A DNA stretch of 64,000 nt, taken from NCBI GenBank assembly GCA_015063545.1, contig SVTX01000003.1, positions 5,913 through 69,912 of the forward strand, in the 5' to 3' direction. This stretch comes from Oscillospiraceae bacterium (GTDB lineage: Bacteria; Bacillota; Clostridia; Oscillospirales; CAG-272). The notes under the pieces were generated by a model. The model was given only the letters and a program-made list of their open reading frames with translations, did not search any database and was not told where the DNA came from. The translations under genes and the position numbers were made by a program. Shown here piece by piece: positions 1 through 35,851 of the stretch (positions within the stretch are counted from its first letter, which is position 1; every line of letters begins with the position of its first letter).

Positions 1-3000
1 CGTGTACAGCAGAAGGATCCAAGTCCAGAGCGTGTGCTAACGGATGTGGCGATAAGCAGACAGAGACAATTCCCGCAAAGGGACACTCCATCAGCGCAGA
101 GTGGGCAACAAAGACACCCGCTACATGTACTGAGGCAGGAGTAGAAATCAAGTCTTGTACGGTATGCTTCGTTGAACTCGAATCTCAGGAAATTCCCGCA
201 ACAGGACACTCTTGGGGCAATGACGCCGAGGCAGGCTGGATCCAGACAATGGCACCCGGATGTACCACGGACGGAGAAGAGACCAGAGTTTGTGCTAACG
301 GATGTAACACATCTGAAACACGTCCCGTAGCTCAGCTTGGACATACAGAATCCGGTTGGACAACGGACTACGACGCAGACTGTGAAAACGCAGGACGCGC
401 GTACACATACTGTGAAGTATGCGGCGATGAGCTTCAGTCCAAAGAAATTCCCGCACTCGGACACAACTACGTTGAGACAGGCAGAGATGAGCCTACGTGT
501 ACAGAGGACGGAACGATACACTACGAGTGTACAAACGGTTGTTACATTCCCAAGACGGAAAATATTCCCGCAACAGGACACACCGAAGAGATAATTGATG
601 CAGTAGAGGCAACCTGTACATCTACAGGTCTTACGGAAGGCAAGAAGTGTAGCGTATGTCAGGCAACGCTTGTGGCTCAGGAAGAAGTTCCCATGAAGGA
701 ACATACAGAGGAAACAATTCCCGCAGTTGACGCAACATGTACGGCAACAGGTCTTACGGAAGGTAAGAAGTGTAGCGAGTGTGGCGAGATACTTCAGGCA
801 CAGGAAATTGTTCCTATGATTCCTCACACTACTGTAATACTTCCCGGAACAGATGCAACATGTCTTGATACGGGTATTGAAGAGGCAACTCAGTGTACAG
901 TATGTAACAAGATGTTTGACCTCAGAGGAACAGAGATCACAGAACGCATAGTTCTCTCTGCTCTCGGTCATGACCACCAGTTCCTTAAAACCGTTGAGGC
1001 AGGATGTATCACGGAAGGTTATGACATTTACAAGTGCGTACGTTGTGACGACAGCTACGAGGATAATTTCGTTGACGCTCTCGACCACGAATACGACGAT
1101 AACCTTGATACAGAGTGTAACAGATGCGGTGAGACAAGACTTCCCGACTGTGACCACGTATATGACAACGCATGTGATGGCGTATGTGATATTTGCGGAA
1201 CGACAAGAGTTCCCGCAGACCACGTTCTCGATGATATCGAAGGCAAGGATGCAACATGTACCGAAACAGGTCTTGAGGCTATCACAGAGTGTACCGTTTG
1301 CGGACAGAAGTTCAATGCTGACGGTGAGAAGATAGACGAACAGCCTATCATCCCTGCACTTGGCCACGCTTACGTTGACCACGATGCTCAGGCGCCCAAC
1401 TGTACTGAAATCGGTTGGAACGCATACCAGACATGTACAAGATGTGATTATACAACTTACGAAGAAATCGCAGCTCTCGGACATACCGAGGAGATTGTTC
1501 CCGCGGTTGACGCAACTTGTACGGCAACAGGTCTTACAGAAGGTAAGAAGTGTAGCGTATGTCAGGAAATCCTTGTAGAACAGGGTGAAATTCCTGCTCT
1601 CGGACATCCTACTAAGGAAGAACTTCCCGTTAAGGCTCCTACCTGTACAGAAACAGGTCTTGAGGCGGCAAGCAAGTGTACGCTTTGCGGACAGGTATTT
1701 GACGCTGAAGGCAACGAGATAGACGAGCAGAAGGTAGTACCTGCTACAGGACACAGCAATAAGGACGTAGTAATTGCTCCCAACTGTACAAATGGCGGTT
1801 ATACTATCCACCTCTGTACCGTTTGCGGAGAAGAAACAGCTCCTAACTCTGACTTTGTTCCCGCAACAGGTCATACAAATACAATCTGGATCACCACAGT
1901 TAAACCCACATGCTCCGAGGCAGGCTCCAAGTATGAGCTCTGTACGGCTTGCGGTGAAAAGACCGGTGCAACAGATACAATAGCAACAACCGATCATACA
2001 TACAAGAGCATAGTAGCTCTCCAGCCCACATGTACTGCAGAAGGTTACACCAAGTCCATCTGTACGTCTTGCGGTGATGAACAGACAACCTCAATTCCTG
2101 CAACAGGACATACAAGCACAGAGTGGATAATTACTTCTGCTCCTACTTGTACGCAGACAGGTCTTAAGGATGAGATCTGTAGCATTTGCGGAACTACCGT
2201 AACCGAGGACGTTGAGGTTGAGGTTACAGAGCATACATACGTTGTAAGCTCCGTAGTAGTTCCTACATGTACGACAAGCGGTTCTACAACGTACATTTGT
2301 ACAGTATGTAACGATACGTACACAGGTAATGAAACCGAGGCTCTCGGACACACATCCGGTGGATGGGTAGTTGAAAATGATGCAACCTGTACAGAAGCAG
2401 GCTCCAAGTACGAGGTTTGCGGAGTGTGCGGTGTCAAGACTGGTAAGACCGAGACAATTGAGGCGCTCGGACACGTTGAGTCTGCAAGCACAACGGCTCC
2501 CACATGTACAGAGGACGGTTACACGACCTACACATGTAGCGTATGTAACGCAACAAGAACAGAAACCGCTACAGGTTCTGCAACAGGACATATAAGCGGC
2601 GGCTGGATCATTGATTCCGAGGCTACCTGTACTACAGAGGGTGCTAAGCACGAAGTATGTAAGGTATGTAAGGAAACCATCAGCACAGAAACAATTCCCA
2701 CAGCTGAGCACAACTACGTAACAGTTGAGACAGAATCCACATGTACAACTCAGGGTACTGTAACTACAACTTGTAGCGTATGCGGAGACACATCCACAAC
2801 TCAGAAGGAACTTCTCGACCACGTAAGTGGCGGTTGGATAGTTGATACTGATCCTACATGTACAACGACCGGTTCTAAGCACGAAGTATGTAAGAATTGC
2901 GGCGGTGAGACAGGCAATACTGACACAATTCCCGCTCTTGACCATAACTACGTAACAGTTGAGACGGAGTCCACATGTACAACTCAGGGTACAATTACCA

Positions 3001-6000
3001 CAACATGTACTGTATGTGGAGAAACATCCACAACTCAGAAGGAACTTGCAGCTCATGTAAGCGGCGGTTGGATAGTAGAAAATCAAGCAACATGTACTAC
3101 TGCAGGCTCCAAGTACGAGATCTGTGCAGTATGTGGACAGAGAACAGGTAACACAGATGTTATAGCGGTTCTTGGACACAACTACACAAGTGAAACAACA
3201 GAGCCCACATGTACGGAAGGCGGAATTACTACCTACACATGTACGGTATGCGGTGATACATATACAGACAACGCAACTTCCGCAACAGGCCACGTAAGCG
3301 GCGGTTGGGTAGTAGAAAGCGAAGCAACCTGTACGGCTACAGGCTCCAAGTATGAAATATGCGGAGTTTGCGGCGCGAGAATGGGTGATAGCGTAACTAT
3401 TGATAAGGTTGAACACAGATACGTAGCGAAGGTAATACTTCCCACATGTACAACCGAAGGATACACAACATACACTTGTGAAACATGTTCTTACAGCTAC
3501 ACCGATAATACAGTAGGCGCAACAGGACACGTTGAAAGCGACTGGATGATCGACCAGGCGGCAAGCTGTGACAACAATGGCTCCAAGCACACAGTATGTA
3601 CTGTTTGCGGCGCTACTGTAAACACAGAAACCGTTATCGCAACAGGTCACCAGAACACAACAAGTGTTATAGCTCCCACATGTACAACTCAGGGTTATAC
3701 AATAACAACATGTACGGTTTGCGGCAAGTCCGAAAACAGTGACTACGTTTCTGCAACTCATACTTCCGTAATTGATGCGGCGGTTGAGGCAACGTGTACA
3801 CAGCCCGGTCTTACCGAGGGTGAACACTGTAGCGTTTGCGGCTTCGTAATGAGCGCACAGAGCACAGTTCCCACTCTTGACCATACATACGACAATGAAT
3901 TTGACTCTGACTGTAACGTATGTGGAACAGAAAGGGCAATTGCGAACTGCGAGCACAACTATGGCACATGCACAGGCACGATTTGTGCTAACTGCGGACA
4001 CGAAAGAGTAGCTCCCGGTCACGTAGCAACAGTAGTTCCCGGTTATGCGGCAACTTGTGAAAACACAGGTAAGACAGATGGCACAAAGTGTGCAGTATGT
4101 AACATTACTCTTACACAGCAGGAAGAAATTTCCGCAAAGGGACACTCCGCTGACATAGCAGAGGCAACATGTACACGTAACAGCATTTGCGTAGATTGCG
4201 GAACGATTCTTGACTTTGCGCTTGGCCACGGATTCAACGGAACAACTTGGGAAACAGTGGTAGCTGCAAGCTGTTCGGTAGAAGGATACGAGCATGAGCT
4301 CTGTTCCGACTGCGGTGAATTCACAGGTAACTATCGTACAATCGATAAGATCGCACATGCAGAGAGCGAATGGATCACAGATGTAGATGCAACTTGTGGA
4401 ACAGATGGTTCCAAGCATACAGAATGTACTGCTTGCGGCGAGGTCATCTTCACACAAACCATACCTGCAACAGGCGCTCACACAGGCGGAACTGCAACAT
4501 GTCAGAGCCAGGCAACATGTGATGTTTGCGCAACTCTCTACGGAGAACTTGGCGAGCATACTCCCGGCATAGAGGCAAGCTGCTCTAACGCTCAGTACTG
4601 TACGACATGTATGGCTGAGATCGCTGTTAAGCTTGATCACAACTTTGTGGCAGGCGAGATAACAGTTGCTCCTACTTGCATCGCAAGAGGCGAGCAGAAG
4701 TACGTATGTACTTGTGGAGCAGAAAGAATTGAACTTATTGATGCAACAGGTGCACACACTCTCGGCGCGGCAGCAACCTGCACAGAGGGACAGAAGTGTA
4801 CTGTATGCGATCAGATACTTGTTAATGCAACAGGACATACAGGCGGAAACGCAACCTGCATGACTCAGGCGAAGTGTAGCGTATGCGGTGATGCTTACGG
4901 AAACGTAGAGGCTAACGCTCATACATACGACAATGCTTGTGACGCTTACTGTAACGATTGCGGATACAACAATACAGAAGCGGCTCACGCAGAGCAGACT
5001 GTACCCGGTACAGACGCAACATGTATAGCAGACGGACTTACCTCCGGTAAGATCTGTGCCGTTTGCGGACAGACAATAGTTGCTCAGACAACTATTCCCG
5101 CAACAGGACATACTTACGACAGCGCAAGCGATGCTGACTGTAACAACTGTGGTGCTGTAAGATGCTCCAGACACGTATATGATAACAGATGCGACGCTAT
5201 CTGTAACAACGAAGGTTGCGGATACGAAAGAGAAGTAATTGACCATTACTACACAAGCGATTGTGATGCAACATGTAATGAATGTGGCGCAACAAGAGCT
5301 GCAGGCGCTCATAAGTACTCCAACGCTTGCGATACATCGTGTGACGAGTGCGGCGAGACAAGAACCGTAGGTGAGCATACATATTCTTACAGCTGTGACG
5401 CTATCTGTAACGAGTGCGGTGCGATCAGAGATGCTCAGCACCAGCCTGTAGGCGGAACATGTAAGGACAAGGCAACTTGCGCAATATGCGGAGTGGTTTG
5501 CGGCGAGCTTGATGCAAGCAAGCATACATACGATAACACATGTGACGTTTACTGTAATGGATGCGGCGCTGAAAGAAGCATTACTCACAGCTATACAGAT
5601 AAGAATGATTCTGGTTACCACTGGAGTGAGTGTAGCGTATGTAATGCTAAGAAGGATATAGCTGCTCACGTTTATGACGGTGATTGCGATACAACTTGCG
5701 ATTGCGGCTACATAAGAACAACGGCAGGACACGTTTACGATAATGCTTGCGATGCTGAATGTAATGAGTGCGGCGAGACCAGAGTTGCGGAGCACAGCTA
5801 CGACAATGCTTGTGATGCTATCTGTAACGTATGTAGCAAGATTAGAACTGTGGGCGAGCACCTGTACGACAATGATTGCGACATAACATGTAATGAGTGT
5901 GACGCTGTAAGAATTACAGAGCATGCTTACGACAATGCTTGCGATGCTGACTGTAACGTATGCGGACAGACAAGAGAAGCAACTCACGTTTATGACAACG

Positions 6001-6884
6001 CTTGTGACGTTGACTGTAACAGCTGTGGAGAAGTAAGAGACGCTGCTGATCATGTATTCGGCGAATGGACTTCTACGGAAGCAGGTCACTACAAGTCTTG
6101 TGAGGTCTGCGGTGTAACGGGTGAATACAGAGACCACGTTTACGCTAACGATTGCGCAGAGACGTCCATCTACTGCGCAGTATGCGGATACGAGGGCAGA
6201 ACGTATGACGACTTGGTCGGCCATACCTACGATAACGCATGTGATACTACATGTAATTTCTGCGGTGATGTAAGAAAGACATACCATAAGTTCGATTATG
6301 ACTGTGACAGTGATTGCGCTGAGTGCGGATACACAAGACCCGATAGCGAGCTCAAGCATACTCAGAATCCTCCTTGCTCCGGTAAGTGCGTATTCTGCGA
6401 AGCAGAAATGATTCCCGCGGCGCATACTTACGATCACTCTTGTGATACGACATGTAACCTCTGCGGATTCGTAAGAGAGGTTGGAGATCACGTTTATGAT
6501 GCTGTTTGCGATACTCAGTGTAACGTTTGCGGATTTATCAGAGAAGTTGAAAATCCTGTTCATGAGTACGACAACTCTTGCGACCAGACATGTAACTTCT
6601 GCGGTGCAATAAGAGACATCAAGCACGACATGGATTTTGCATTCAATGAAGAAGGTCACTGGCAGGAGTGCGTAATTTGTGGATACAAAGCATCGGATAA
6701 GCCTGCGGCACACAGAGACAGATATGAGGATCTTGGTGACGGCACGCACAGATACTACTGTAACAGATGTGCATACGAGTATATCGAGGAACACACATTT
6801 GAGAACGGTGTTTGCGCATGTAAGGCTAAGGAACCCGTAGCGACAGCACTCGCTCTTCCCCCCAAGAAGGAAGAAAACGCATAA
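1..6884 (+). CDS. Giant cysteine-rich repeat protein, 5'-truncated by the window edge (>2,290 aa)
   Basis: The frame is open from the window edge, with the first full codon at nt 3. Nt 3-248 translate as CTAEGSKSRACANGCGDKQTETIPAKGH..., the same module as downstream. Stop is TAA at 6882-6884. There are roughly 40 modules of the form [IV]P-A-[TL]-G-H...C-T-x-x-G-x5-6-C-x2-C-G, then about 20 units of H-x-Y-D-x-x-C-D-x-x-C-N-x-C-G-x-x-R. The N-terminus is off-window, so no signal peptide can be assessed. Confidence 0.85.
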   Translation, partial: CTAEGSKSRACANGCGDKQTETIPAKGHSISAEWATKTPATCTEAGVEIKSCTVCFVELESQEIPATGHSWGNDAEAGWIQTMAPGCTTDGEETRVCANGCNTSETRPVAQLGHTESGWTTDYDADCENAGRAYTYCEVCGDELQSKEIPALGHNYVETGRDEPTCTEDGTIHYECTNGCYIPKTENIPATGHTEEIIDAVEATCTSTGLTEGKKCSVCQATLVAQEEVPMKEHTEETIPAVDATCTATGLTEGKKCSECGEILQAQEIVPMIPHTTVILPGTDATCLDTGIEEATQCTVCNKMFDLRGTEITERIVLSALGHDHQFLKTVEAGCITEGYDIYKCVRCDDSYEDNFVDALDHEYDDNLDTECNRCGETRLPDCDHVYDNACDGVCDICGTTRVPADHVLDDIEGKDATCTETGLEAITECTVCGQKFNADGEKIDEQPIIPALGHAYVDHDAQAPNCTEIGWNAYQTCTRCDYTTYEEIAALGHTEEIVPAVDATCTATGLTEGKKCSVCQEILVEQGEIPALGHPTKEELPVKAPTCTETGLEAASKCTLCGQVFDAEGNEIDEQKVVPATGHSNKDVVIAPNCTNGGYTIHLCTVCGEETAPNSDFVPATGHTNTIWITTVKPTCSEAGSKYELCTACGEKTGATDTIATTDHTYKSIVALQPTCTAEGYTKSICTSCGDEQTTSIPATGHTSTEWIITSAPTCTQTGLKDEICSICGTTVTEDVEVEVTEHTYVVSSVVVPTCTTSGSTTYICTVCNDTYTGNETEALGHTSGGWVVENDATCTEAGSKYEVCGVCGVKTGKTETIEALGHVESASTTAPTCTEDGYTTYTCSVCNATRTETATGSATGHISGGWIIDSEATCTTEGAKHEVCKVCKETISTETIPTAEHNYVTVETESTCTTQGTVTTTCSVCGDTSTTQKELLDHVSGGWIVDTDPTCTTTGSKHEVCKNCGGETGNTDTIPALDHNYVTVETESTCTTQGTITTTCTVCGETSTTQKELAAHVSGGWIVENQATCTTAGSKYEICAVCGQRTGNTDVIAVLGHNYTSETTEPTCTEGGITTYTCTVCGDTYTDNATSATGHVSGGWVVESEATCTATGSKYEICGVCGARMGDSVTIDKVEHRYVAKVILPTCTTEGYTTYTCETCSYSYTDNTVGATGHVESDWMIDQAASCDNNGSKHTVCTVCGATVNTETVIATGHQNTTSVIAPTCTTQGYTITTCTVCGKSENSDYVSATHTSVIDAAVEATCTQPGLTEGEHCSVCGFVMSAQSTVPTLDHTYDNEFDSDCNVCGTERAIANCEHNYGTCTGTICANCGHERVAPGHVATVVPGYAATCENTGKTDGTKCAVCNITLTQQEEISAKGHSADIAEATCTRNSICVDCGTILDFALGHGFNGTTWETVVAASCSVEGYEHELCSDCGEFTGNYRTIDKIAHAESEWITDVDATCGTDGSKHTECTACGEVIFTQTIPATGAHTGGTATCQSQATCDVCATLYGELGEHTPGIEASCSNAQYCTTCMAEIAVKLDHNFVAGEITVAPTCIARGEQKYVCTCGAERIELIDATGAHTLGAAATCTEGQKCTVCDQILVNATGHTGGNATCMTQAKCSVCGDAYGNVEANAHTYDNACDAYCNDCGYNNTEAAHAEQTVPGTDATCIADGLTSGKICAVCGQTIVAQTTIPATGHTYDSASDADCNNCGAVRCSRHVYDNRCDAICNNEGCGYEREVIDHYYTSDCDATCNECGATRAAGAHKYSNACDTSCDECGETRTVGEHTYSYSCDAICNECGAIRDAQHQPVGGTCKDKATCAICGVVCGELDASKHTYDNTCDVYCNGCGAERSITHSYTDKNDSGYHWSECSVCNAKKDIAAHVYDGDCDTTCDCGYIRTTAGHVYDNACDAECNECGETRVAEHSYDNACDAICNVCSKIRTVGEHLYDNDCDITCNECDAVRITEHAYDNACDADCNVCGQTREATHVYDNACDVDCNSCGEVRDAADHVFGEWTSTEAGHYKSCEVCGVTGEYRDHVYANDCAETSIYCAVCGYEGRTYDDLVGHTYDNACDTTCNFCGDVRKTYHKFDYDCDSDCAECGYTRPDSELKHTQNPPCSGKCVFCEAEMIPAAHTYDHSCDTTCNLCGFVREVGDHVYDAVCDTQCNVCGFIREVENPVHEYDNSCDQTCNFCGAIRDIKHDMDFAFNEEGHWQECVICGYKASDKPAAHRDRYEDLGDGTHRYYCNRCAYEYIEEHTFENGVCACKAKEPVATALALPPKKEENA

Positions 6885-6887
6885 AAC

Positions 6888-6920
6888 AAAAAAACCAAAG
6901 TGTCCTTCGGGACACTTTGG
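6888..6920 (-). terminator. Intrinsic terminator for the U32 peptidase gene
   Basis: Hairpin ccaaagtgtcc-ttcg-ggacactttgg at 6895-6920. Read on the minus strand it is followed by a T7 run (plus-strand A-run 6888-6894). Confidence 0.6.
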
Positions 6921-6924
6921 TTAA

Positions 6925-6965
6925 GCATAAATCCCACGGCAACTGCCGTGGGATTTATGCTTTTT
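6925..6965 (+). terminator. Intrinsic terminator for the giant repeat-protein gene
   Basis: Perfect 16-bp stem gcataaatcccacggc / gccgtgggatttatgc with loop aact, followed by TTTTT at 6961-6965. It is interleaved with the convergent gene's terminator. Confidence 0.7.
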
Positions 6966-9012
6966 ATATTCTTCTTGTTGATCCTTCAAGCGGAATCTTT
7001 TTGATATATGCGTGTATGACTTGATCTACTTGTTGAGGTGTTTCTGTGGTAAACATGAAAACCTGATTTGTTACGTTCGCTTTTGAAAGCTCATCGGGCT
7101 TGTCTGACATACAGGTGGGCATGCTGTTATAGATAACGTTTCTGTGTTGCCATTCTCTGGCTACAGGAAAAATAAAGCCTCGTCTGTCCTTGATTTGAGC
7201 AAACCGCATATTGCCGTTTTCTTGCTCGCGTGAAAATTTTTCGCAGGCTTCGCAGCCGTGTGTGTCGCGTATGATGCATTTCTCAAGCGTCATCAGCGGT
7301 ATGCGTCCATACACGACAGTCGCGCAATCTCCCGAAATATCTCGTGTTTGCGGAAGCGTTAATTCGGGGGAGAGGGTGACGTTTGTGACGCCTATTGAGT
7401 TGAGCTTTGCGACGGAGAGGCTGTTTGTAACATTGAATCTGAAATCTCCGAAAATATCAATTCCAAGATCTCTTACCAATTCAATGTTTCCGATGTTTCC
7501 GACCATGGCGCACGTCGCGCCGTTTTTTATAGCGGAATTTATAAGACGCATAACAGCATCTTTTTCACTGTCGAAAATTACAGGCGGCAAGACAAAGCCG
7601 TCTGCTGAGCTGTCGTATCGCTCAAGTGGCAAAAACGTCTTATCGAAAAATTTTTTTGCCTTGTCGGTTATCTGTGATGGGAACAAAAATCTTCCTATAC
7701 GCTGTTTTTTTCTTTCTTTTGAGGGTGGCGCCGGGAATTTGTTCGTGAATTTTGGAATCTGCTTTGTTGTTAGCTCCGACAAGAGCTTATCTATACCGCT
7801 TCTTCGGAGACTGTTCAGTCTTGAGACGGGAAGCATCAACCCGTTGTCCAGAGAAATGCTTATTTTGTTTACGATGAAAGGCGTATCTCCGAGCTTTAGC
7901 ATGCTTTTTTGTACGCAGTCCTCGTCAATGGGGGCGTTTATGGCAGTTTGCGGAATGTCGCCTTCTGCACTTACCATCAGGTCACCAAATGAAATTTTGA
8001 GGCGGCAGGGAGAATCTCTGTGTATGTCAACGTCGATATCGATGGGTAGCTTTCGGTTTATTTTTGTGAATTTTTCGGCGCTCATAGACGCGCTTTTATC
8101 TGCTTCTGAGCGAATGCCGAGCATTTTTTTGTTTATGTTTTTTGTAAAATATCCATCGGTAAATCCGCCGCGGGAAAAAATATCCGCAAGCTTTTTCATT
8201 TCCTCGCCCGAAGCGTTTCTGCCCTCGTCGAGCAGCCTTCGCCATATACCCGTTACCGCGTGAACGTATTCGGGGGCTTTCATTCTGCCCTCTATTTTTA
8301 GGGAATGTACGCCGCTATCCAAAATTTCCGTTACGTGAGTAGCGAGCGATAGGTCTTTTAGTGAGAGGGGATATTGTGAAGGGCACGATGAAGAAGAAGC
8401 GCAATAAGGTAAACGGCAGGGTTGAGCGCAAAGACCTCTGTTTCCGCTTCTTCCGCCGACCATAGATGAAAACAGACACTGTCCGGAGTGAGAAACGCAA
8501 AGCGCGCCGTGTGTGAATATTTCAACCTCCAAGGGGTTGTTATCCACCAAATATTTGATATCCTCAAATGAAAGCTCTCTGGCGGGGACAAGACGGGAAA
8601 ATCCCATTTTTTGAAGCTGTATTCCCGCACCTGCGTTGTGCGCTGACATTTGCGTGCTTGCATGAAGCGGCATGTCGGGCATGTGGGATCTCAAAAGCTC
8701 TGCCGCGCCCATATCTGCTACGATGAACGCGTCAACTCCGCACGTCGCGGCATTCTCCGCGCATGACAAAAAGCCCTCTTTTTCTCTGTCGAAAAGCAGG
8801 GTGTTGAGAGTTACGTATACTTTTACGCCGTATGAATGAGCAAGCTTTACGCACTCGGAAAGTTCTTCGGAGGTAAAGTTTTTGGCATTTATACGGGCGT
8901 TAAAAGAGGTGCCGCCCACATATATTGCGTCGGCACCTCCGTCAACAGCCGCCATAAAAGCTTCTTTTGAGCCTGCGGGGCTTAACAATTCGGGAAGAAA
9001 TTTTTTAGTCAT
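6964..9012 (-). CDS. Peptidase U32 family protein (collagenase-like)
   Basis: 682-aa ORF. The N-terminus ELLSPAGSKEAFMAAVDGGADAIYVGG and the motif EIFTHGALCVSHSGQCLFSS match the U32 signature E-x-F-x2-G-[SA]-[LIVM]-C-x4-G-x-C. Confidence 0.85.
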   Translation of the reverse strand: MTKKFLPELLSPAGSKEAFMAAVDGGADAIYVGGTSFNARINAKNFTSEELSECVKLAHSYGVKVYVTLNTLLFDREKEGFLSCAENAATCGVDAFIVADMGAAELLRSHMPDMPLHASTQMSAHNAGAGIQLQKMGFSRLVPARELSFEDIKYLVDNNPLEVEIFTHGALCVSHSGQCLFSSMVGGRSGNRGLCAQPCRLPYCASSSSCPSQYPLSLKDLSLATHVTEILDSGVHSLKIEGRMKAPEYVHAVTGIWRRLLDEGRNASGEEMKKLADIFSRGGFTDGYFTKNINKKMLGIRSEADKSASMSAEKFTKINRKLPIDIDVDIHRDSPCRLKISFGDLMVSAEGDIPQTAINAPIDEDCVQKSMLKLGDTPFIVNKISISLDNGLMLPVSRLNSLRRSGIDKLLSELTTKQIPKFTNKFPAPPSKERKKQRIGRFLFPSQITDKAKKFFDKTFLPLERYDSSADGFVLPPVIFDSEKDAVMRLINSAIKNGATCAMVGNIGNIELVRDLGIDIFGDFRFNVTNSLSVAKLNSIGVTNVTLSPELTLPQTRDISGDCATVVYGRIPLMTLEKCIIRDTHGCEACEKFSREQENGNMRFAQIKDRRGFIFPVAREWQHRNVIYNSMPTCMSDKPDELSKANVTNQVFMFTTETPQQVDQVIHAYIKKIPLEGSTRRI

Positions 9013-29003: not shown

Positions 29004-32000
29004 ATGAAAAAGCACACTTTTTTGAAAGTATTTTCTGTAATAACAGTTTTTGCAATTATTCTTTGTGCATCGGCAACGCCTATTTTTGCATTAGAAAATC
29101 AAACAGCAGTCAATAATGACTACGTACAGGAAAATTATCAGTTAAGTCCATATATAAATTCAAATTTATCTGTCAAGCAAAATGACAATGAGTATATTAC
29201 AGAGGGATTTGAAATAATAGAAGGAGAACGAGAAGGAACGGTTGTTGAAGTAGAGGAATTAAGAGAAGAATACGTAAAACATTTCAGTCTGCCCAACGGC
29301 ACATACGAAGCGGTTGTATATCCCGAACCGGTTCATGTCAAGGACTCCAATGGTCAATGGCAAGATGTGAATAATGCGTTGTCGCTAAAAACTGATGGTA
29401 ACAAAAATGTTTATGCAACAGCAGACAACCGGTTAAGCTTTGCACAAAATGTCTTGGCTAATCAAGATATTTTTAGTTTATCGGAAAATGGGTATTCTAT
29501 ATCTATGTCTCTTGTTCCGCAGAAAGCTACTCTTGATAAAGATATAGTTCTTGAAGAGGAATCTTCTTTGAGTGTTTCAAAAGACATTACGATGAATATG
29601 CCGTCGATAACAAACAGCCCTGCTCGAGCAACAAAATTTGATACTATTGATCAAGCAATTAACATTGACAATAAGAGCTCCATTACTTATTTTAACGTAA
29701 GTGCTGATACAGACATAGAATATGTTATTGGCACACGTAGCATTAAAGAGAATATAATTGTAAAGAACAAAAAAAGCGACTACACGTATTCGTTTGCGAT
29801 TAATGTAGATGGATTGTATGCCGAGCTATACAACGATGGCAGTATAAAATTTTACGATGCGATAAATAACAATCCCCAATATGTGATTCCATCACCGTAC
29901 ATGTATGATGCGGAAGGAAACATATCGTATAATGTGCAATACTCACTGTCACTTGTAGGTAAAAATCAATATTCCCTTACGGTAAGTGCAGATAAGACTT
30001 GGATTAATTCACAAGATAGAGTTTTTCCTGTAACCATTGATCCTTCTTTAACATCATATTCCACAGCATATGACACATATATTGATCCGTCAAGCGCAAC
30101 TTCTAATTTTGGAAACGCAAACCCCTTGATTTTGGACGGCGACAATATTGTATACATGAAAATGGATTTTCCCGAGTTACCCGAAGGAAGCACATTGGGC
30201 ACCGTTTTCTATTGTGTTTCATATTATTTCCCCGATGGAACAACAGATGAAACAATGGACGCTGACATATATGAAATATCTCAATCCTGGGATGCTAATA
30301 CTTTAACATGGAACAGCTCGGCACAATTGGGAAACAATCGGGGATTATCGGAGGCCGCATACGACACAACACGTTTTTCAACCGGTTCCTCTACTCGTTC
30401 TATTAGAATAACATCTTTGGCTAGAGATTGGTACAATGGAACAAAAACCAACAACGGAATAGCTTTGAAATATAACTCGGGATATTCATGTGTGATGTTG
30501 AATTCCGCTGAAACAGAAGGAACAAGTGCTCCGTATTATCGCATAAGCTATACTAGATATGTTCCCGATGGAATTTATTTCATACAAAATGTGGGAAATG
30601 TTTACCAATGGTTAGAAATTCCTGCGGCATGGGACAATGGCGAAATCAAAACTGACGATTATAATCACGTTGCTGGACCATATGTATATGAAATGCATCG
30701 TGCAACATTGTTTAAGATAAGCAGGGTAAGTTCAACAGATAGATATGTCATAAGAACAATGCAAAACAATCTCCTTACACTAAGCGAGGCAGATGGAACA
30801 TACGTTACGAAAAAAATACCGGCAGATGATGCAGCCGTTCAGATAACGGACACATTTTATATAAATTTTGATGGAGAAAATGTAACCATACGTCAATATG
30901 GCAGCGATAATTTTTTAACAACATCATCAACTGCTACAACATATCCAACCGATGTAACTGTTTCTGATGAAGAAACCTTTTCGGATTATTCAAAATGGTC
31001 TTTAAAAAAATACACCTGCCCCGAGACATGGTGCGGCGCAGAATGGTCAGCTCCCCCTGATTTAAATGCAGGGGAGTTGGTATCATATATACCCACAATG
31101 TGGTCGTCTGAGATAAATGCCAATCAGCCTTACATGTACATGTCAAGTGAATCCCAATATACGTATGCTACAGGCACTTGGCATTCTGAAGAAAATATTT
31201 TCGAAGTGACACCGCATATACTCCCGCAATTTTCGTTTTACGTTGAGATACTTACACCCGAAGGAACTGCGATTTGTTCTGTACTTGAAACTCGACAGGT
31301 CACTGTTCCGATACCTGACGGCGAGTACTATATTCAAAACGCTCAACACGGGCTGTTTATGCAGACAGATACTACGCTTGCCACAAGCATTATCATGGCA
31401 GGAGATTTTGGTTACCATAATTTCCAAACTTGGAACATTACCCATTGGCGTGATGGATATTATAAGATTCAATCAAAACTTAGTAATTTAGCTCTTACAT
31501 ATCAGAATGAAACATACGATTCAAGTGGATCGTTGTCTCAGCAGCTATATAATGGACTTTACAATCAAATTTGGAAACTTGAATTGACAGAGCGAGGAAC
31601 ATACATAATACGAAATCGTATAAGTGAGACATATGAAACAGATTGGTGTGCAGCAATGACGGGAATGACTGGGCAACATGAACACAATATAGTACAACAA
31701 AATGCATATGTTTCAGATTATAACTATAATGATGAATGGGGCTTTTATAATACACAGGAATACTATGGTACCGTATCCCATTGGCATAATGATTCAGACG
31801 AGGTAAGATATTTGAGCACGCCAATAACCTATTATTTAGATGATAAGATAGAGGATGGTGGAATTTTTGCGCAAATATGTGACAATGCAATTGCTGAATG
31901 GGCACAAGCACTTGATATTGAAATCACAAAATCTACATCAAAGAACAATGCACAAATAAAAATAGAAAGATTGTCGGAAAGCGCATATCGCCAAAAAGAA

Positions 32001-32318
32001 GCGGAAAAGGGCACCTCTGATTCCTATGGTTTTGCTGTTTCAGAGAACGATGCGTATACAGGATATGTTGTCTATAATAATGAAATCAAGCATATCGTGT
32101 CCTGTACCGGGTATCAAATATATATTCTTTATAGAGAAGTGTCCAATAACGAGAATAGAAAAGTGATTTTGCACGAATTTGGACATTCGATAGGATATAC
32201 CGGACATTCAATAGATCCAAAAGATATAATGTATACAATTTATAGTGATCAATCTACGGATTTAACTGCCGGAGAAATCAATCATGTGCGTCAAATTTAT
32301 GACCTCATTTACGGATAA
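29004..32318 (+). CDS. Secreted multidomain protein: DNRLRE-like region + ricin-type (QxW) lectin repeats + C-terminal matrixin-like metzincin protease
   Basis: Signal peptide MKKHTFLKVFSVITVFAIILCASATPIFA. ADNRLSF lies at 29421-29441. DTYIDPSSATSNFGNANPL...MKMDFPELPEGSTL resembles the DNRLRE domain pattern. QxW-type motifs include YQWLEI, FQTWNI and NQIWKL. HEFGHSIGYTGHS lies at 32172-32210, followed by a DIMY Met-turn. Confidence 0.8.
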   Translation: MKKHTFLKVFSVITVFAIILCASATPIFALENQTAVNNDYVQENYQLSPYINSNLSVKQNDNEYITEGFEIIEGEREGTVVEVEELREEYVKHFSLPNGTYEAVVYPEPVHVKDSNGQWQDVNNALSLKTDGNKNVYATADNRLSFAQNVLANQDIFSLSENGYSISMSLVPQKATLDKDIVLEEESSLSVSKDITMNMPSITNSPARATKFDTIDQAINIDNKSSITYFNVSADTDIEYVIGTRSIKENIIVKNKKSDYTYSFAINVDGLYAELYNDGSIKFYDAINNNPQYVIPSPYMYDAEGNISYNVQYSLSLVGKNQYSLTVSADKTWINSQDRVFPVTIDPSLTSYSTAYDTYIDPSSATSNFGNANPLILDGDNIVYMKMDFPELPEGSTLGTVFYCVSYYFPDGTTDETMDADIYEISQSWDANTLTWNSSAQLGNNRGLSEAAYDTTRFSTGSSTRSIRITSLARDWYNGTKTNNGIALKYNSGYSCVMLNSAETEGTSAPYYRISYTRYVPDGIYFIQNVGNVYQWLEIPAAWDNGEIKTDDYNHVAGPYVYEMHRATLFKISRVSSTDRYVIRTMQNNLLTLSEADGTYVTKKIPADDAAVQITDTFYINFDGENVTIRQYGSDNFLTTSSTATTYPTDVTVSDEETFSDYSKWSLKKYTCPETWCGAEWSAPPDLNAGELVSYIPTMWSSEINANQPYMYMSSESQYTYATGTWHSEENIFEVTPHILPQFSFYVEILTPEGTAICSVLETRQVTVPIPDGEYYIQNAQHGLFMQTDTTLATSIIMAGDFGYHNFQTWNITHWRDGYYKIQSKLSNLALTYQNETYDSSGSLSQQLYNGLYNQIWKLELTERGTYIIRNRISETYETDWCAAMTGMTGQHEHNIVQQNAYVSDYNYNDEWGFYNTQEYYGTVSHWHNDSDEVRYLSTPITYYLDDKIEDGGIFAQICDNAIAEWAQALDIEITKSTSKNNAQIKIERLSESAYRQKEAEKGTSDSYGFAVSENDAYTGYVVYNNEIKHIVSCTGYQIYILYREVSNNENRKVILHEFGHSIGYTGHSIDPKDIMYTIYSDQSTDLTAGEINHVRQIYDLIYG

Positions 32319-32354: not shown

Positions 32355-34364
32355 ATGAAAAAAATCGTTTTTTCTCTTACATGTATAATATCATTCCTAC
32401 TATTATTGGGCTCTCTACAAGCCTTGGCATCTCCGGAAATTCCCTATGATCCTTCAAATCCATATTATAGAAACGAAAAAGGAATGCCTTGGGCAGTATA
32501 TTCTTCCGCATACACCTACCCCACTCCCGACGACTACAGAAATCCTCCTACGAACGCTGTACTTCCCGATCTGGAGTACACCGACGAAGGCTTTAGAATG
32601 TTCAAGGACGGATATGGCAATGCTCCACTTAAAGCCAATCTGGTGACGCAGGAAAAGCAGAATCTCCGCGAAGGCGTTTCCATAACCGTGAGAGAAGACG
32701 AGTTTTACTACGGCGGTGACTGGGGAATAAACTTCTTCTTGTGGGATAGCCACAATCCTGCCTTTGGTTACCTCGACGCAACATACGGTCAGGGAGTATT
32801 TTTTGATTTGGTCGGATCTTCAACACGTGACGGTGTTCCTACATTCGAGCAGTTAGTATTCTACTGTTGCGATGAAAGCTTCACATGGGTTTACGATGAC
32901 TATCTGCAAAAAGAAGAATTCTGGTCTGTTATCGAATGGTTCCGAGACTTAAGTGCCGAGCAAAGCGATGCCATATTCGACGAGAACGGAAATGCGGTAT
33001 TCAACATGGATCTGAGCTATGATGAGACCACGCAAAAATACAGCTTGACCGTGTTCGGCATAGAAATCAATTCGGATGCGATTACAAACTATATCAATCA
33101 CCGATTCCCCGACGGCGGTGCATACGTTGGATTTGCCGTTCGTTCCAGTACAGGGGCTTATAAAGGACCGTTCTCCTTTACAATGACAGAATTTAACGGC
33201 ATTACCCCTCAGGGCGGATGGGATCACCCGTTATATCACGAATATGACAACGACTGCGATACCTTCTGCGAGTTCTGCGGCAACAAAAGACTTATAGAAC
33301 ACAGCTATGAAGCAGTTGTAACATTACCCACTTGCACAGAAGGCGGCTATACTACCTACACTTGCTCGGTTTGTGCTGACACATACGTAGCAGATGAGAC
33401 TGCCGCACTCGGACACACATTCGCGGATGCGACTTGCACAAATCCAAAGACTTGTTCGGTTTGCAACGCAACAGAGGGCGAGGCGCTCGGGCATAGCTAC
33501 GAAACAGTTGTAACATTACCCACTTGCACAGAAGGCGGCTATACTACCTACACTTGCTCGGTTTGTGCTGACACATACGTAGCAGATGAGACTGCCGCGC
33601 TCGGACACACATTCGCGGATGCGACTTGTACAACGGCTAAGACCTGTTCTGTTTGTAATACAACCGAAGGTGAGGCGCTTGGACATAGCTACGAAACAGT
33701 TGTAACATTACCCACATGCACAGAAGGCGGCTATACTAACTACACTTGCTCGGTTTGCGCCGACACTTACGTAGCAGATGAGACTGCCGCACTCGGACAC
33801 ACATTCGCGGATGCGACTTGCACAAATCCTAAGACTTGTTCTGTTTGTAATACAACAGAGGGCGAGGCGCTTGGACATAGCTACGAAACAGTTGTAACTT
33901 TACCCACTTGCACAGAAGGCGGCTATACTACCTACACTTGCTCGGTTTGTGCTGACACATACGTAGCAGATGAGACTGCCGCACTCGGACACGCATTCGC
34001 AGACGCGACTTGCACAACGGCTAAGACCTGTTCTGTTTGTAATACAACCGAAGGTGCGGCGCTTGGGCACACGTACGACAGTGAATCTGACGAATACTGC
34101 AACATCTGTTCTGAAAAGCGAGATATCCCCTCAACTGAGCCTCCCACTGAGCCTCCCACTGAGCCTCCCACTGAGCCTCCAACCGAACCTGCAACGGAAC
34201 CTATCACAGAGCCTGTGACAGAGCCGACGGCAGAGCAACCCACGACCTCATCTACCGCCGCAACGGAGGAGGGCGGATGTTCTTCGAGTGTTGGTATTGC
34301 CTTTATCGGACTTAGCACTGCACTTGCGGCAGGATATGTCTTTTCCAAAAAGAAAAATAATTAA
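32355..34364 (+). CDS. Secreted/anchored protein: lectin-like N-domain + Cys3/His repeats + (PTEP)n linker + GGC-TM-KKK C-terminal tail
   Basis: Signal peptide ...LLLGSLQALASPE. It lies 37 nt after the upstream ORF, so co-transcription is likely. GAYVGFAVRSSTGAYKGPFSF suggests a ConA/legume-lectin-like fold, which is my inference. Four 64-aa repeats use the same vocabulary as the giant ORF. The tail is EEGGCSSSVGIAFIGLSTALAAGYVFSKKKNN. Confidence 0.8.
   Translation: MKKIVFSLTCIISFLLLLGSLQALASPEIPYDPSNPYYRNEKGMPWAVYSSAYTYPTPDDYRNPPTNAVLPDLEYTDEGFRMFKDGYGNAPLKANLVTQEKQNLREGVSITVREDEFYYGGDWGINFFLWDSHNPAFGYLDATYGQGVFFDLVGSSTRDGVPTFEQLVFYCCDESFTWVYDDYLQKEEFWSVIEWFRDLSAEQSDAIFDENGNAVFNMDLSYDETTQKYSLTVFGIEINSDAITNYINHRFPDGGAYVGFAVRSSTGAYKGPFSFTMTEFNGITPQGGWDHPLYHEYDNDCDTFCEFCGNKRLIEHSYEAVVTLPTCTEGGYTTYTCSVCADTYVADETAALGHTFADATCTNPKTCSVCNATEGEALGHSYETVVTLPTCTEGGYTTYTCSVCADTYVADETAALGHTFADATCTTAKTCSVCNTTEGEALGHSYETVVTLPTCTEGGYTNYTCSVCADTYVADETAALGHTFADATCTNPKTCSVCNTTEGEALGHSYETVVTLPTCTEGGYTTYTCSVCADTYVADETAALGHAFADATCTTAKTCSVCNTTEGAALGHTYDSESDEYCNICSEKRDIPSTEPPTEPPTEPPTEPPTEPATEPITEPVTEPTAEQPTTSSTAATEEGGCSSSVGIAFIGLSTALAAGYVFSKKKNN
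33300..34067 (+). repeat. 4 x 192-bp near-identical in-frame tandem repeat (ABAB pattern)
   Basis: The unit encodes HSYE[AT]VVTLPTCTEGGYT[TN]YTCSVCADTYVADETAALGH[TA]FADATCT[NP/TA]KTCSVCN[AT]TEG[EA]ALG. Copies 1 and 3 carry NPK and copies 2 and 4 carry TAK. Confidence 0.9.
34134..34181 (+). repeat. 12-bp microsatellite-like repeat (actgagcctccc x4) encoding (TEPP)n
   Basis: Three perfect copies plus one copy with a single mismatch. They continue into degenerate TEP units. Confidence 0.85.
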
Positions 34365-34481: not shown

Positions 34482-34537
34482 ATTATGATTAATCTATAAT
34501 GGCAAATTGTGTGCAAATTGAAACAGGAGGTGATTTT

Positions 34538-35851
34538 GTGGTAAAAATTCTGTCAGTAGACAAAAAAAGCCGCGCCGAACGCGCAGGCATCAGCGCAGGC
34601 GATGTACTTATATCCATAAACGGCAGAGAAATAAACGACGTACTGGACTACAGATTTCATCTGACGAATAGCAAAATTATCCTCAAATGCCGTCGTGACG
34701 GAAAGGATTACTCGGTTGAGATAAGAAAGCAGCAATACGACGATATCGGACTGGAATTTGAAACTCCCCTCATGGATAAAAAGCACTCATGCGAGAACAA
34801 GTGTATTTTCTGCTTTATCGACCAGCTGCCGCGCGGAATGAGAAAGACATTGTATTTCAAGGACGACGATTCGCGTCTTTCATTCCTCCACGGAAACTAT
34901 ATCACCCTCACAAACCTTCATGACAGCGACATAGACCGCATAATCGAGATGCACATTTCCCCCGTCAATATTTCGGTGCATACTACAAATCCCGAGCTCC
35001 GCGTGCAGATGATGCACAACAAACGTGCGGGTGAGGTGCTTGCGTATATGAAAAGGCTTGCTGATGCGGGCATATCCCTTTGCGGACAGATAGTGCTTTG
35101 TAAAGGAATAAACGACGGCGAGGAATTACTACGCTCAATGCGCGATTTGTCCGAGCTTTTCCCCGCGATGCAGAGCGTCTCAATAGTACCTGCGGGACTT
35201 ACGAGATACCGTGAAAAATTATTCCCGCTTGAGCAATATACAAAGGACGAGGCTGCGGCAGTCATTGATGCGGTAGACAGGTTTGCTACCGAGTGCAAAG
35301 AAAAGTACGGCGCGAGAATGTTCTTCTGCGCGGATGAGCTTTATCTGCGCGCCGAAAGGGAGCTTCCCGACGAGGATTACTACGAGGGATATTCCCAGAT
35401 AGAAAACGGCGTTGGTATGATAACATCGCTTGTTACCGAATTTAACGACGAGATGAATTTCCTTGACGAGTATTTGGAAAACTACCAAGCTCCCCGAAAA
35501 ATATCAATTGCCACGGGCGTGGCATCCTACGACACCATAAAGAGTATGGCGGTAAGACTTGAAGCGGCTGTCGAAGGGCTTGAGATAAACGTATACAAAA
35601 TAATCAACAACTTTTTTGGAGAAAGCATTACTGTCGCGGGACTCTTAACGGGCAAGGACATGTCGGAGCAACTAAAAGGCAAAGACCTTGGCGAGCTGTT
35701 GGTGTTCCCGTCAAACACGCTCCGCGCGGGCGAGGATATTTTCCTTGACGATATGACACCCACACAGCTCTCCGAAATTATTGGAGTACCCACAGCGCCC
35801 TCGGGCGAGAGCGGCGGAGAGTTCATCAGGCAGATGCTTGAGAGGTGCTAA
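34538..35851 (+). CDS. PDZ domain / radical-SAM-like (CX3CX2C) DUF512 family protein
   Basis: GTG at 34538 follows AGGAGG. PDZ-like segment SRAERAGISAGDVLISINGREI. CENKCIFC is a CX3CX2C cluster. The position upstream of der is typical in Clostridia as far as I recall. Confidence 0.75.
   Translation: MVKILSVDKKSRAERAGISAGDVLISINGREINDVLDYRFHLTNSKIILKCRRDGKDYSVEIRKQQYDDIGLEFETPLMDKKHSCENKCIFCFIDQLPRGMRKTLYFKDDDSRLSFLHGNYITLTNLHDSDIDRIIEMHISPVNISVHTTNPELRVQMMHNKRAGEVLAYMKRLADAGISLCGQIVLCKGINDGEELLRSMRDLSELFPAMQSVSIVPAGLTRYREKLFPLEQYTKDEAAAVIDAVDRFATECKEKYGARMFFCADELYLRAERELPDEDYYEGYSQIENGVGMITSLVTEFNDEMNFLDEYLENYQAPRKISIATGVASYDTIKSMAVRLEAAVEGLEINVYKIINNFFGESITVAGLLTGKDMSEQLKGKDLGELLVFPSNTLRAGEDIFLDDMTPTQLSEIIGVPTAPSGESGGEFIRQMLERC

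Follow-up and report, generated by a model that had tools for sequence, protein, structure and literature searches.

A linker-free chain of small Cys- and His-rich modules was found at the C-terminal end of a giant secreted modular protein, encoded at the start of a 64,000-nucleotide stretch of DNA (contig SVTX01000003.1, positions 5,913 to 69,912; here, the window) from the Oscillospiraceae bacterium assembly GCA_015063545.1. Judging from patterns of residue loss and covariation, this array (5109..6623) is likely to be an extracellular spacer in which minimal metal-knuckle modules interlock, probably clamped by zinc. Each unit of 21 to 22 residues would fold as a small hairpin around a C10-N-x-C13-G knuckle, and each tetrahedral site would be formed by the unit's own His0, its knuckle, and Cys6 of the preceding unit. 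Since such sites are shared, each junction would be clamped by a metal and the array would form one continuous rod, with neither a hydrophobic core nor linkers. The chain would open with a local Cys or His at position -2 relative to its first His, and its last unit would lack the donor Cys. Such a rod may serve to fix the distance between functional domains of secreted and surface proteins in anaerobic gut Oscillospirales. The motif, its conservation, its extracellular context, and the covariation across junctions are direct observations.

The repeating unit and its shared ligands

The 5' end of the giant gene is lost at the contig edge, so that its open reading frame (ORF) has at least 4,264 amino acids (4,264 open codons) on its own contig, where it contains about 78 modules. 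A metagenome contig of 114 kb matches with 100% identity over 12 kb, and on it the gene is called at 4,550 amino acids; a genome of the same genus holds a collinear orthologue of 6,336 amino acids with 45% identity over 4,351 columns. We distinguish four classes of module: class A, of about 40 amino acids (H...PTCTxxG...CxxCG); class B, the 21- to 22-residue unit (H-x-Y-D-N-x-C-D-x-x-C-N-x-C-G-x-x-R); class C (HxGGxATC...CxxCG); and class D (H...HWxxCxxC).

The main array comprises 22 contiguous modules, every one starting with His, of which 17 belong to class B, 1 is class C-like (H-x-x-x-G-G-x-C...C-x-x-C), 2 are class D (H...H-W/Y-x-x-C-x-x-C), and 2 are irregular. The count of about 20 units of 21 to 22 amino acids in an earlier note, made from the sequence of the window, was therefore close but slightly generous, as there are 22 linker-free modules, with only 17 of class B and with lengths of 21 to 29 amino acids. 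Among the class-B units of the array, the length of the knuckle is altered in two and the first Cys is missing in one. A loose form of the motif occurs 15 times in the 510-amino-acid array stretch, compared with a mean of 0.001 and a maximum of 1 in 2,000 shuffles. Each module contains its His and exactly three more Cys or His residues, with exceptions at amino acids 1813 (an extra Cys) and 2141 (an extra His).

Over 1,355 class-B units, the period was found to be 22 (504 spacings) or 21 (197 spacings) residues. Near-invariant positions are His0, Tyr2 (89%), Cys6 (97%), Asp7, Cys10, Asn11 (85%), Cys13, Gly14 (81%), and Arg17 (98%), the last of these being conserved even though it lies outside the search pattern. 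AlphaFold2 modelled five class-B units (amino acids 1907-2021; 59-row alignment) with a predicted local distance difference test score (pLDDT) of 86.3, and the only regular structure in the model is a beta-bridge between positions 9 and 16, which forms a predicted hairpin around the C10-x-x-C13-G knuckle. Three class-A modules were modelled with a pLDDT of 95.3 and a three-stranded sheet in each module. The weak Foldseek matches of the class-B model are nearly all to zinc modules (TFIIB, RBR, NZF, LIM, and Nop10).

Three assignments of the ligands were compared in 229 proteins containing 2,604 class-B units. In model I, Cys6 of unit i-1 joins His0, Cys10, and Cys13 of unit i; in model II, Cys6, Cys10, and Cys13 of unit i join His0 of unit i+1; and in model III, all four ligands come from a single unit. 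The first test concerned array ends, where units lack a following unit. The presence of Cys at positions 4 to 6 tracks the presence of a next His (two-by-two table with rows 146, 45 and 14, 830; odds ratio, 192); cases in which both are absent span 95 proteins, and the next His has a knuckle of its own within 40 amino acids in 812 of 830 cases. Terminal units retain His0, Cys10, and Cys13.

The second test concerned compensation. When the upstream unit has no Cys at positions 4 to 6, a Cys is found at -4 to -1 of the next His in 30 of 56 cases, compared with 1 of 1,490 cases otherwise, and in many of the other 26 the Cys is displaced by one or two positions. His0 is kept in 114 of 116 first units preceded by Cys-free domains, and at -4 to -1, mostly at -2, 65 of these 116 units have Cys, 29 have His, and 22 have neither, against an internal-unit background of about 2%. 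A Cys or His at -2 of a first unit would be without a role under model II and would be a fifth ligand under model III.

For the third test, 861 position pairs were ranked by covariation in 901 distinct di-units (effective number, 645). Positions 4 and 5 of unit i are coupled to positions 1 and 12 of unit i+1, with ranks 3, 10, 11, and 27, whereas no coupling was seen between positions 4 and 5 and positions 1 and 12 of their own unit (ranks 313 to 807). Positions 1 and 12 couple within one unit (ranks 4 and 13), and, as a positive control, the coupling of positions 9 and 16 (rank 8) agrees with the beta-bridge of the model. Model I is favoured by all three tests, and these residue patterns indicate that Cys6 of unit i completes the putative site formed by His0 and the CxxC knuckle of unit i+1. 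The composition of three Cys and one His per unit given in the earlier note is correct, but these residues do not appear to form one site, as the first Cys is placed in the site of the next unit.

The simplest reading of that composition is that each unit is a self-contained His-Cys3 zinc knuckle and that the units follow one another like beads on a string, with no sharing of ligands; in principle, an additional Cys behind Arg17 could also reach back into its own unit. We consider this unlikely, as terminal units drop Cys6 and keep the other three ligands, first units would acquire a fifth ligand with the Cys or His at -2, and the positions next to Cys6 co-vary with the site of the next unit and not with that of their own.

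The second strongest coupling of all is that of positions 3 and 11. Asp3 pairs with Asn11 (1,359 units), and Ala, Lys, or Gln at position 3 pairs with Asp11. This swap suggests that a pair of side chains has to include one carboxylate, which may face Arg17 in a salt bridge, and a second cation (calcium) site at these positions could also be envisaged. The Asp residues, proposed earlier as ligands, thus look like part of a structural pair in which Asp3 and Asn11 exchange roles.

The same rule is followed within the window. All four units without Cys6 obey it: after three of them the next His is preceded by a Cys at -2 or -3, and the fourth is the last module before the linker of a second protein (the 32355 ORF, described below). 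The class-B pair at 1086..1208 is consistent with compensation. In the array itself a donor is present at every junction, and it is absent only from the final cap, HTFENGVCAC, so that the chain would close with its last site complete. In class A, the first Cys is lost from modules that are not followed by His, and a Cys at -2 of the next His was seen once. Among class-D modules, the second His is kept in 349 of 352 that have a following His and is missing in 5 of 5 that do not. By these patterns the putative donor rule is common to classes A, B, and D. The view that the repeat classes form one shared vocabulary therefore holds for architecture (His, donor Cys or His, CxxC knuckle) and for the junction rule, while homology between the classes was not demonstrated statistically.

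Distribution and related protein families

Scans of the whole giant protein with Pfam and NCBIfam returned only noise. A PDB sequence search with the array gave a sole match, to the Notch3 LNR repeats, which was not significant (E = 0.57), and literature searches with general terms found no paper on the 22-residue repeat. The absence of any match to an annotated family, as supposed from inspection, was thus borne out in Pfam, NCBIfam, and PDB searches. A word-seeded search nevertheless retrieved 673 proteins with a class-B unit, and, among 1.84 billion representatives, a five-unit profile matched 2,501 clusters at E <= 0.001, of which 584 reached E <= 1e-30. All named records with the unit are bins of uncultured bacteria from herbivore guts (sheep, goat, deer, buffalo, and horse) and comparable sources, and are labelled Acutalibacteraceae, Oscillospiraceae, Eubacteriales, or Clostridia. 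The AspS encoded in the window has 90% identity to one that carries the label Ruminococcaceae/Oscillospiraceae. The repeat was present in 13 of 24 searched genomes of the same genus, in 2 of 16 other families of the order, and in 1 of 299 other genomes sampled evenly across the class. The source genome (1.83 Mb) contains about two dozen ORFs with such modules. Genomes of the same genus with a size of 1.6 Mb contain ORFs of 6,336, 6,720, and 4,410 amino acids built largely from these modules, and a single module-rich gene takes up as much as about 1% of such a genome.

Partner domains of the unit in related proteins include LRR_5, dockerin, cohesin, SLH, Big_3, CBM_4_9, GH16, papain-like protease, and alkaline phosphatase, and these are extracellular. 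At the N-terminus of the orthologue of the giant protein, a signal peptide precedes a phosphodiester-glycosidase (NAGPA) domain and domains of the MAM-like/BNR kind. Together with the signal peptide and C-terminal anchor of the 32355 ORF and the dockerin, cohesin, SLH, and LRR_5 relatives, this supports the extracellular location that had been presumed for the repeats.

It has to be asked whether modules folded in the proposed manner would act mainly as a binding surface, for plant or host glycans or for partner proteins, or as an extracellular store or scavenger of metal. The array of the giant protein stands at a free C-terminal end with no anchor behind it, surface residues between the ligands are variable, and the number of modules in the giant ORF would provide many sites. 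This function is nonetheless improbable in our view. In hundreds of proteins the unit is set between unrelated enzyme, lectin, LRR, and anchor domains, which is typical of a spacer; fully coordinated Cys/His sites would make poor exchangeable stores; and published work on a related domain favours a spacer (PMC12237041, PMC12415215).

That domain belongs to the IgA protease of Thomasclavelia ramosa, and the longer repeat class of the window is related to it, a link that was absent from the earlier note. Two predicted zinc-binding domains of the protease, ZBD1 and ZBD2 (CTD2 and CTD4), have been termed "metal-associated periscope domains" (PMC12237041, PMC12415215). Their subdomains, of about 35 to 40 amino acids, are each modelled as a three-stranded antiparallel sheet without a hydrophobic core; the models of 2025 place Cys/His zinc sites at the subdomain interfaces; small-angle X-ray scattering shows an extended rod, proposed to be a spacer; and no disulfides were seen despite 24 cysteines (PMC12237041, PMC12415215). 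Our class-A profile, built from the giant protein and its relatives, matches PDB chain 9qa6_A of the protease precisely within ZBD1 and ZBD2, at residues 847-981 and 1097-1143 (E = 1e-10). The terminal modules of 9qa6_A read ATATTAG and the internal ones ATCTTAG, so that the donor Cys is lost at the chain end there too. The entry 9qa6 was missing from the Foldseek matches of both AlphaFold2 models, probably because its zinc-binding domains are not in the deposited coordinates or because it is newer than the Foldseek library.

Like the ZBDs, the chains described here consist of extracellular Cys/His modules set end to end, with predicted interface sites and a proposed rod-like spacer role, and the class-A modules are modelled with three strands each, as published. 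Class B resembles the ZBDs in having Cys/His sites at module interfaces, as far as sequences alone can indicate. In contrast to the ZBD subdomains, the class-B unit is about half the size (21 to 22 amino acids), is modelled as a bare knuckle hairpin with one beta-bridge per unit rather than as a three-stranded sheet, gives no profile match to the protease, and occurs in arrays that reach tens of copies compared with two to three subdomains. The published ZBDs are modelled, not solved. Class B is a shorter, separate module type in the same chains that follows the same rule as the recently noticed ZBD kind, and these comparisons suggest that the class-B array is a short unnamed relative of the zinc-bridged ZBD spacers.

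Zinc ribbons contain two knuckles, each giving two ligands to one zinc. The class-B unit shares with zinc knuckles and ribbons (rubredoxin-type CxxCG) a C-x-x-C-G turn flanked by a beta-bridge. Unlike a ribbon, it would contribute one knuckle per site, the site being completed by a His located nine to ten residues upstream and by a Cys of the neighbouring unit, and unlike either group it is extracellular and has no significant sequence or fold match.

Notch LNR repeats are modules of 35 to 40 amino acids with six Cys in three disulfides and bound calcium. Their C-D-x-x-C-N...C core and conserved Asp and Asn are shared by the class-B unit, and it is over CDxxCN...C that the array finds its only PDB sequence match; a disulfide- and calcium-stabilised module of this kind would fit these features. 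We regard it as very unlikely. The hosts are strict anaerobes, and the related IgA protease lacks disulfides in spite of its many cysteines (PMC12237041, PMC12415215). In a disulfide module, the invariant His and its covariation with Cys6 would be without function; the Cys count is three per 22 amino acids and not six; and the Pfam Notch model is silent at E <= 1.

Sets of three Cys and one His can also bind iron or a 2Fe-2S cluster. Were the sites to hold redox-active iron (rubredoxin-like or 2Fe-2S), they would lie close together and regularly along a rod in an anaerobe, and the chain could act as a haem-free extracellular wire that conducts electrons away from the surface of the cell. The signal peptide of the 32355 ORF, however, is of the Sec type without a twin arginine, and extracellular insertion of such cofactors is not known. 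Neither cytochrome nor electron-transfer genes were observed in the neighbourhood and no CxxCH haem motif is present, and an electron conduit is highly improbable on these grounds.

Three other candidates were rejected. A multihaem c-type cytochrome was discarded for lack of CxxCH, as the knuckle is C-N-x-C-G and the next His follows 8 to 9 residues later. A radical-SAM-like CX3CX2C cluster was discarded because covariation does not place the three Cys in a single site and no enzyme domain is present. Modification of the type seen in ribosomally synthesized and post-translationally modified peptides, by the neighbouring radical-SAM/PDZ gene at 34499-35851, was set aside on the judgement that this gene is of a housekeeping type and has nothing to do with the repeats.

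Array integrity and other features of the window

The array units have a mean nucleotide identity of 63% (maximum, 81%), the longest exact DNA repeat is 17 nucleotides, and Tandem Repeats Finder detected no DNA array in window positions 1-7000. With such low identity between units and such short exact repeats, collapse or expansion during assembly is unlikely. The C-terminal array aligns with that of the orthologue module for module (327 identities in 710 columns), with no gap of more than 3 residues inside the array and no whole-module indel, and even the irregular modules and the compensating Cys residues keep their places. Array length is thus conserved between the two species, and the match likewise argues against an assembly artefact. 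Copy-number variation, which the earlier note proposed to test across related strains, was not seen in this comparison of two species. The source genome is a short-read metagenome bin of 69 contigs in which the giant gene is cut by a contig end, but given the divergence of the units, the 114-kb metagenome contig with its 12 kb of 100% identity, and the identical module order in the orthologue, the chance that the array was created by collapsed or expanded repeats is negligible.

The second protein of the window built from these modules is small and complete. The 32355 ORF encodes, in order, a signal peptide, a 270-amino-acid head, a class-B unit, four pairs of class-A and class-C modules, a class-B cap, a Pro/Thr/Glu linker, and a membrane anchor, so that the module block sits between the head domain and the linker with its anchor. 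For the head (32430-33236; amino acids 25-294), no Pfam match and no homologue in a search of 5.8 billion proteins were found. At 33299-34066, a tandem repeat of 192 bp is present in 4.0 copies with 91% identity, each copy encoding one class-A and one class-C module. In contrast to the giant gene, whose array is old and diverged, this repeat arose by recent duplication, which makes it a candidate site of variation in copy number.

Periscope proteins and fibrillar adhesins, such as those with SasG/Aap G5-E, Rib, or Big stalks, likewise use long linear arrays to project or space surface domains (PMC9704523, PMC9210967). Canonical periscope arrays are encoded by near-identical DNA repeats of variable copy number (PMC9704523, PMC9210967), and it is the 192-bp repeat of the 32355 ORF that resembles this type. 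The array of the giant protein differs from it in being old and diverged at the nucleotide level, with a module order conserved between species, and from such stalks in general in that proposed metal sites, and not a beta-sandwich fold, would stabilise it.

The coordinates of the features are given in Table 1. The isolated class-B copies reported earlier in the giant ORF and at both ends of the 32355 module block are all present, and there is an additional one at 4920..4973.

Table 1. Positions in the window of the two module-containing genes and of their class-B units
Feature	Position	Strand	Remarks
Giant secreted modular protein gene, 3' part	3..6884	+	Frame 3 open, 2,293 codons
Upstream chain of longer modules (classes A, C, and D), interspersed with three lone class-B units	3..5103	+	From sequence
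Two class-B units	1086..1208	+	First has Leu for Cys6; LPDCDH puts a Cys at -2 of the next His
Isolated class-B unit without Cys6	3882..3935	+	Followed by Cys-x-His (ANCEH)
Class-B unit ahead of the main array, HTYDNACDAYCNDCGYNN	4920..4973	+	Cys6 present, His at +22
Main array, 22 contiguous His-initiated modules, linker-free	5109..6623	+	Amino acids 1703-2207 of the window translation
Two class-D modules (His, donor His, CxxC; His2Cys2) extending the chain	6624..6791	+	
Terminal donor-less cap HTFENGVCAC (His and two Cys)	6792..6821	+	Orthologue counterpart HTFIDGVCQC
Second small complete protein built from these modules (32355 ORF)	32355..34364	+	
Class-B unit opening the 32355-ORF module block, HEYDNDCDTFCEFCGNKR	33237..33290	+	
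Terminal donor-less class-B cap, HTYDSESDEYCNICSEKR	34068..34121	+	Ser for Cys6, no His after

On the minus strand, 2091-6794 is open for 1,567 codons opposite the giant gene; this antisense frame probably results from the bias in codon composition and does not mark a gene. Just upstream of the 32355 ORF, positions 29004-32318 encode a secreted protein of 1,104 amino acids in which a ricin-type lectin domain is combined with a C-terminal matrixin domain; the G+C content of this stretch is about 38%, compared with 44 to 51% in most other 2-kb windows.

Weight of the evidence and implications

Several points weigh against the interpretation of the array as a metal-clamped spacer. The array of the giant protein is at the extreme C-terminus without a recognisable anchor, which makes a stalk less obvious than in the 32355 ORF. 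The assignment of ligands is based on sequence statistics, and the units and proteins compared are mutual relatives, so that p-values are inflated and it is the direction and consistency of the patterns that count. For 22 of the 116 first units, a fourth ligand is not obvious. Some 18 class-B units retain Cys6 and are followed by a His without a knuckle. This His opens a Cys-free domain with the motif YPFxLSxGxYSSTNK, and with such a domain next, the last site would need ligands from another kind of domain. Foldseek comparison of both AlphaFold2 models with the PDB gave nothing significant (best class-B match, E = 1.6), the class-B profile had no PDB match at E <= 10, and profile comparison with hhalign among classes A, B, C, and D, whose profiles are too short for this purpose, did not link class B to class A. 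The zinc sites of the IgA protease are themselves only predicted. We infer three things from the whole of the evidence, namely, the binding of a metal, its identity as zinc, and the stiffness of the resulting spacer.

At 22 residues, the unit is among the smallest autonomous extracellular building blocks to have been proposed, and it has no Pfam, NCBIfam, or PDB entry, yet 2,501 protein clusters carry it by profile. If the shared-ligand chain is confirmed, it would represent a distinct route to a stiff extracellular rod, in which metal clamps at every junction replace a folded domain core, disulfides, and isopeptide bonds. For protein engineers, it would then offer a compact rigid spacer with a stiffness that can be switched by metal. 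An observation made in 2025 on a single IgA protease is also extended to a large module system with simple, testable rules. Fibre-degrading gut bacteria deploy the unit in dockerin, cohesin, LRR, and enzyme proteins, and if the proposed mechanism is true, the surface architecture of these uncultured bacteria would be tied to the supply of zinc.

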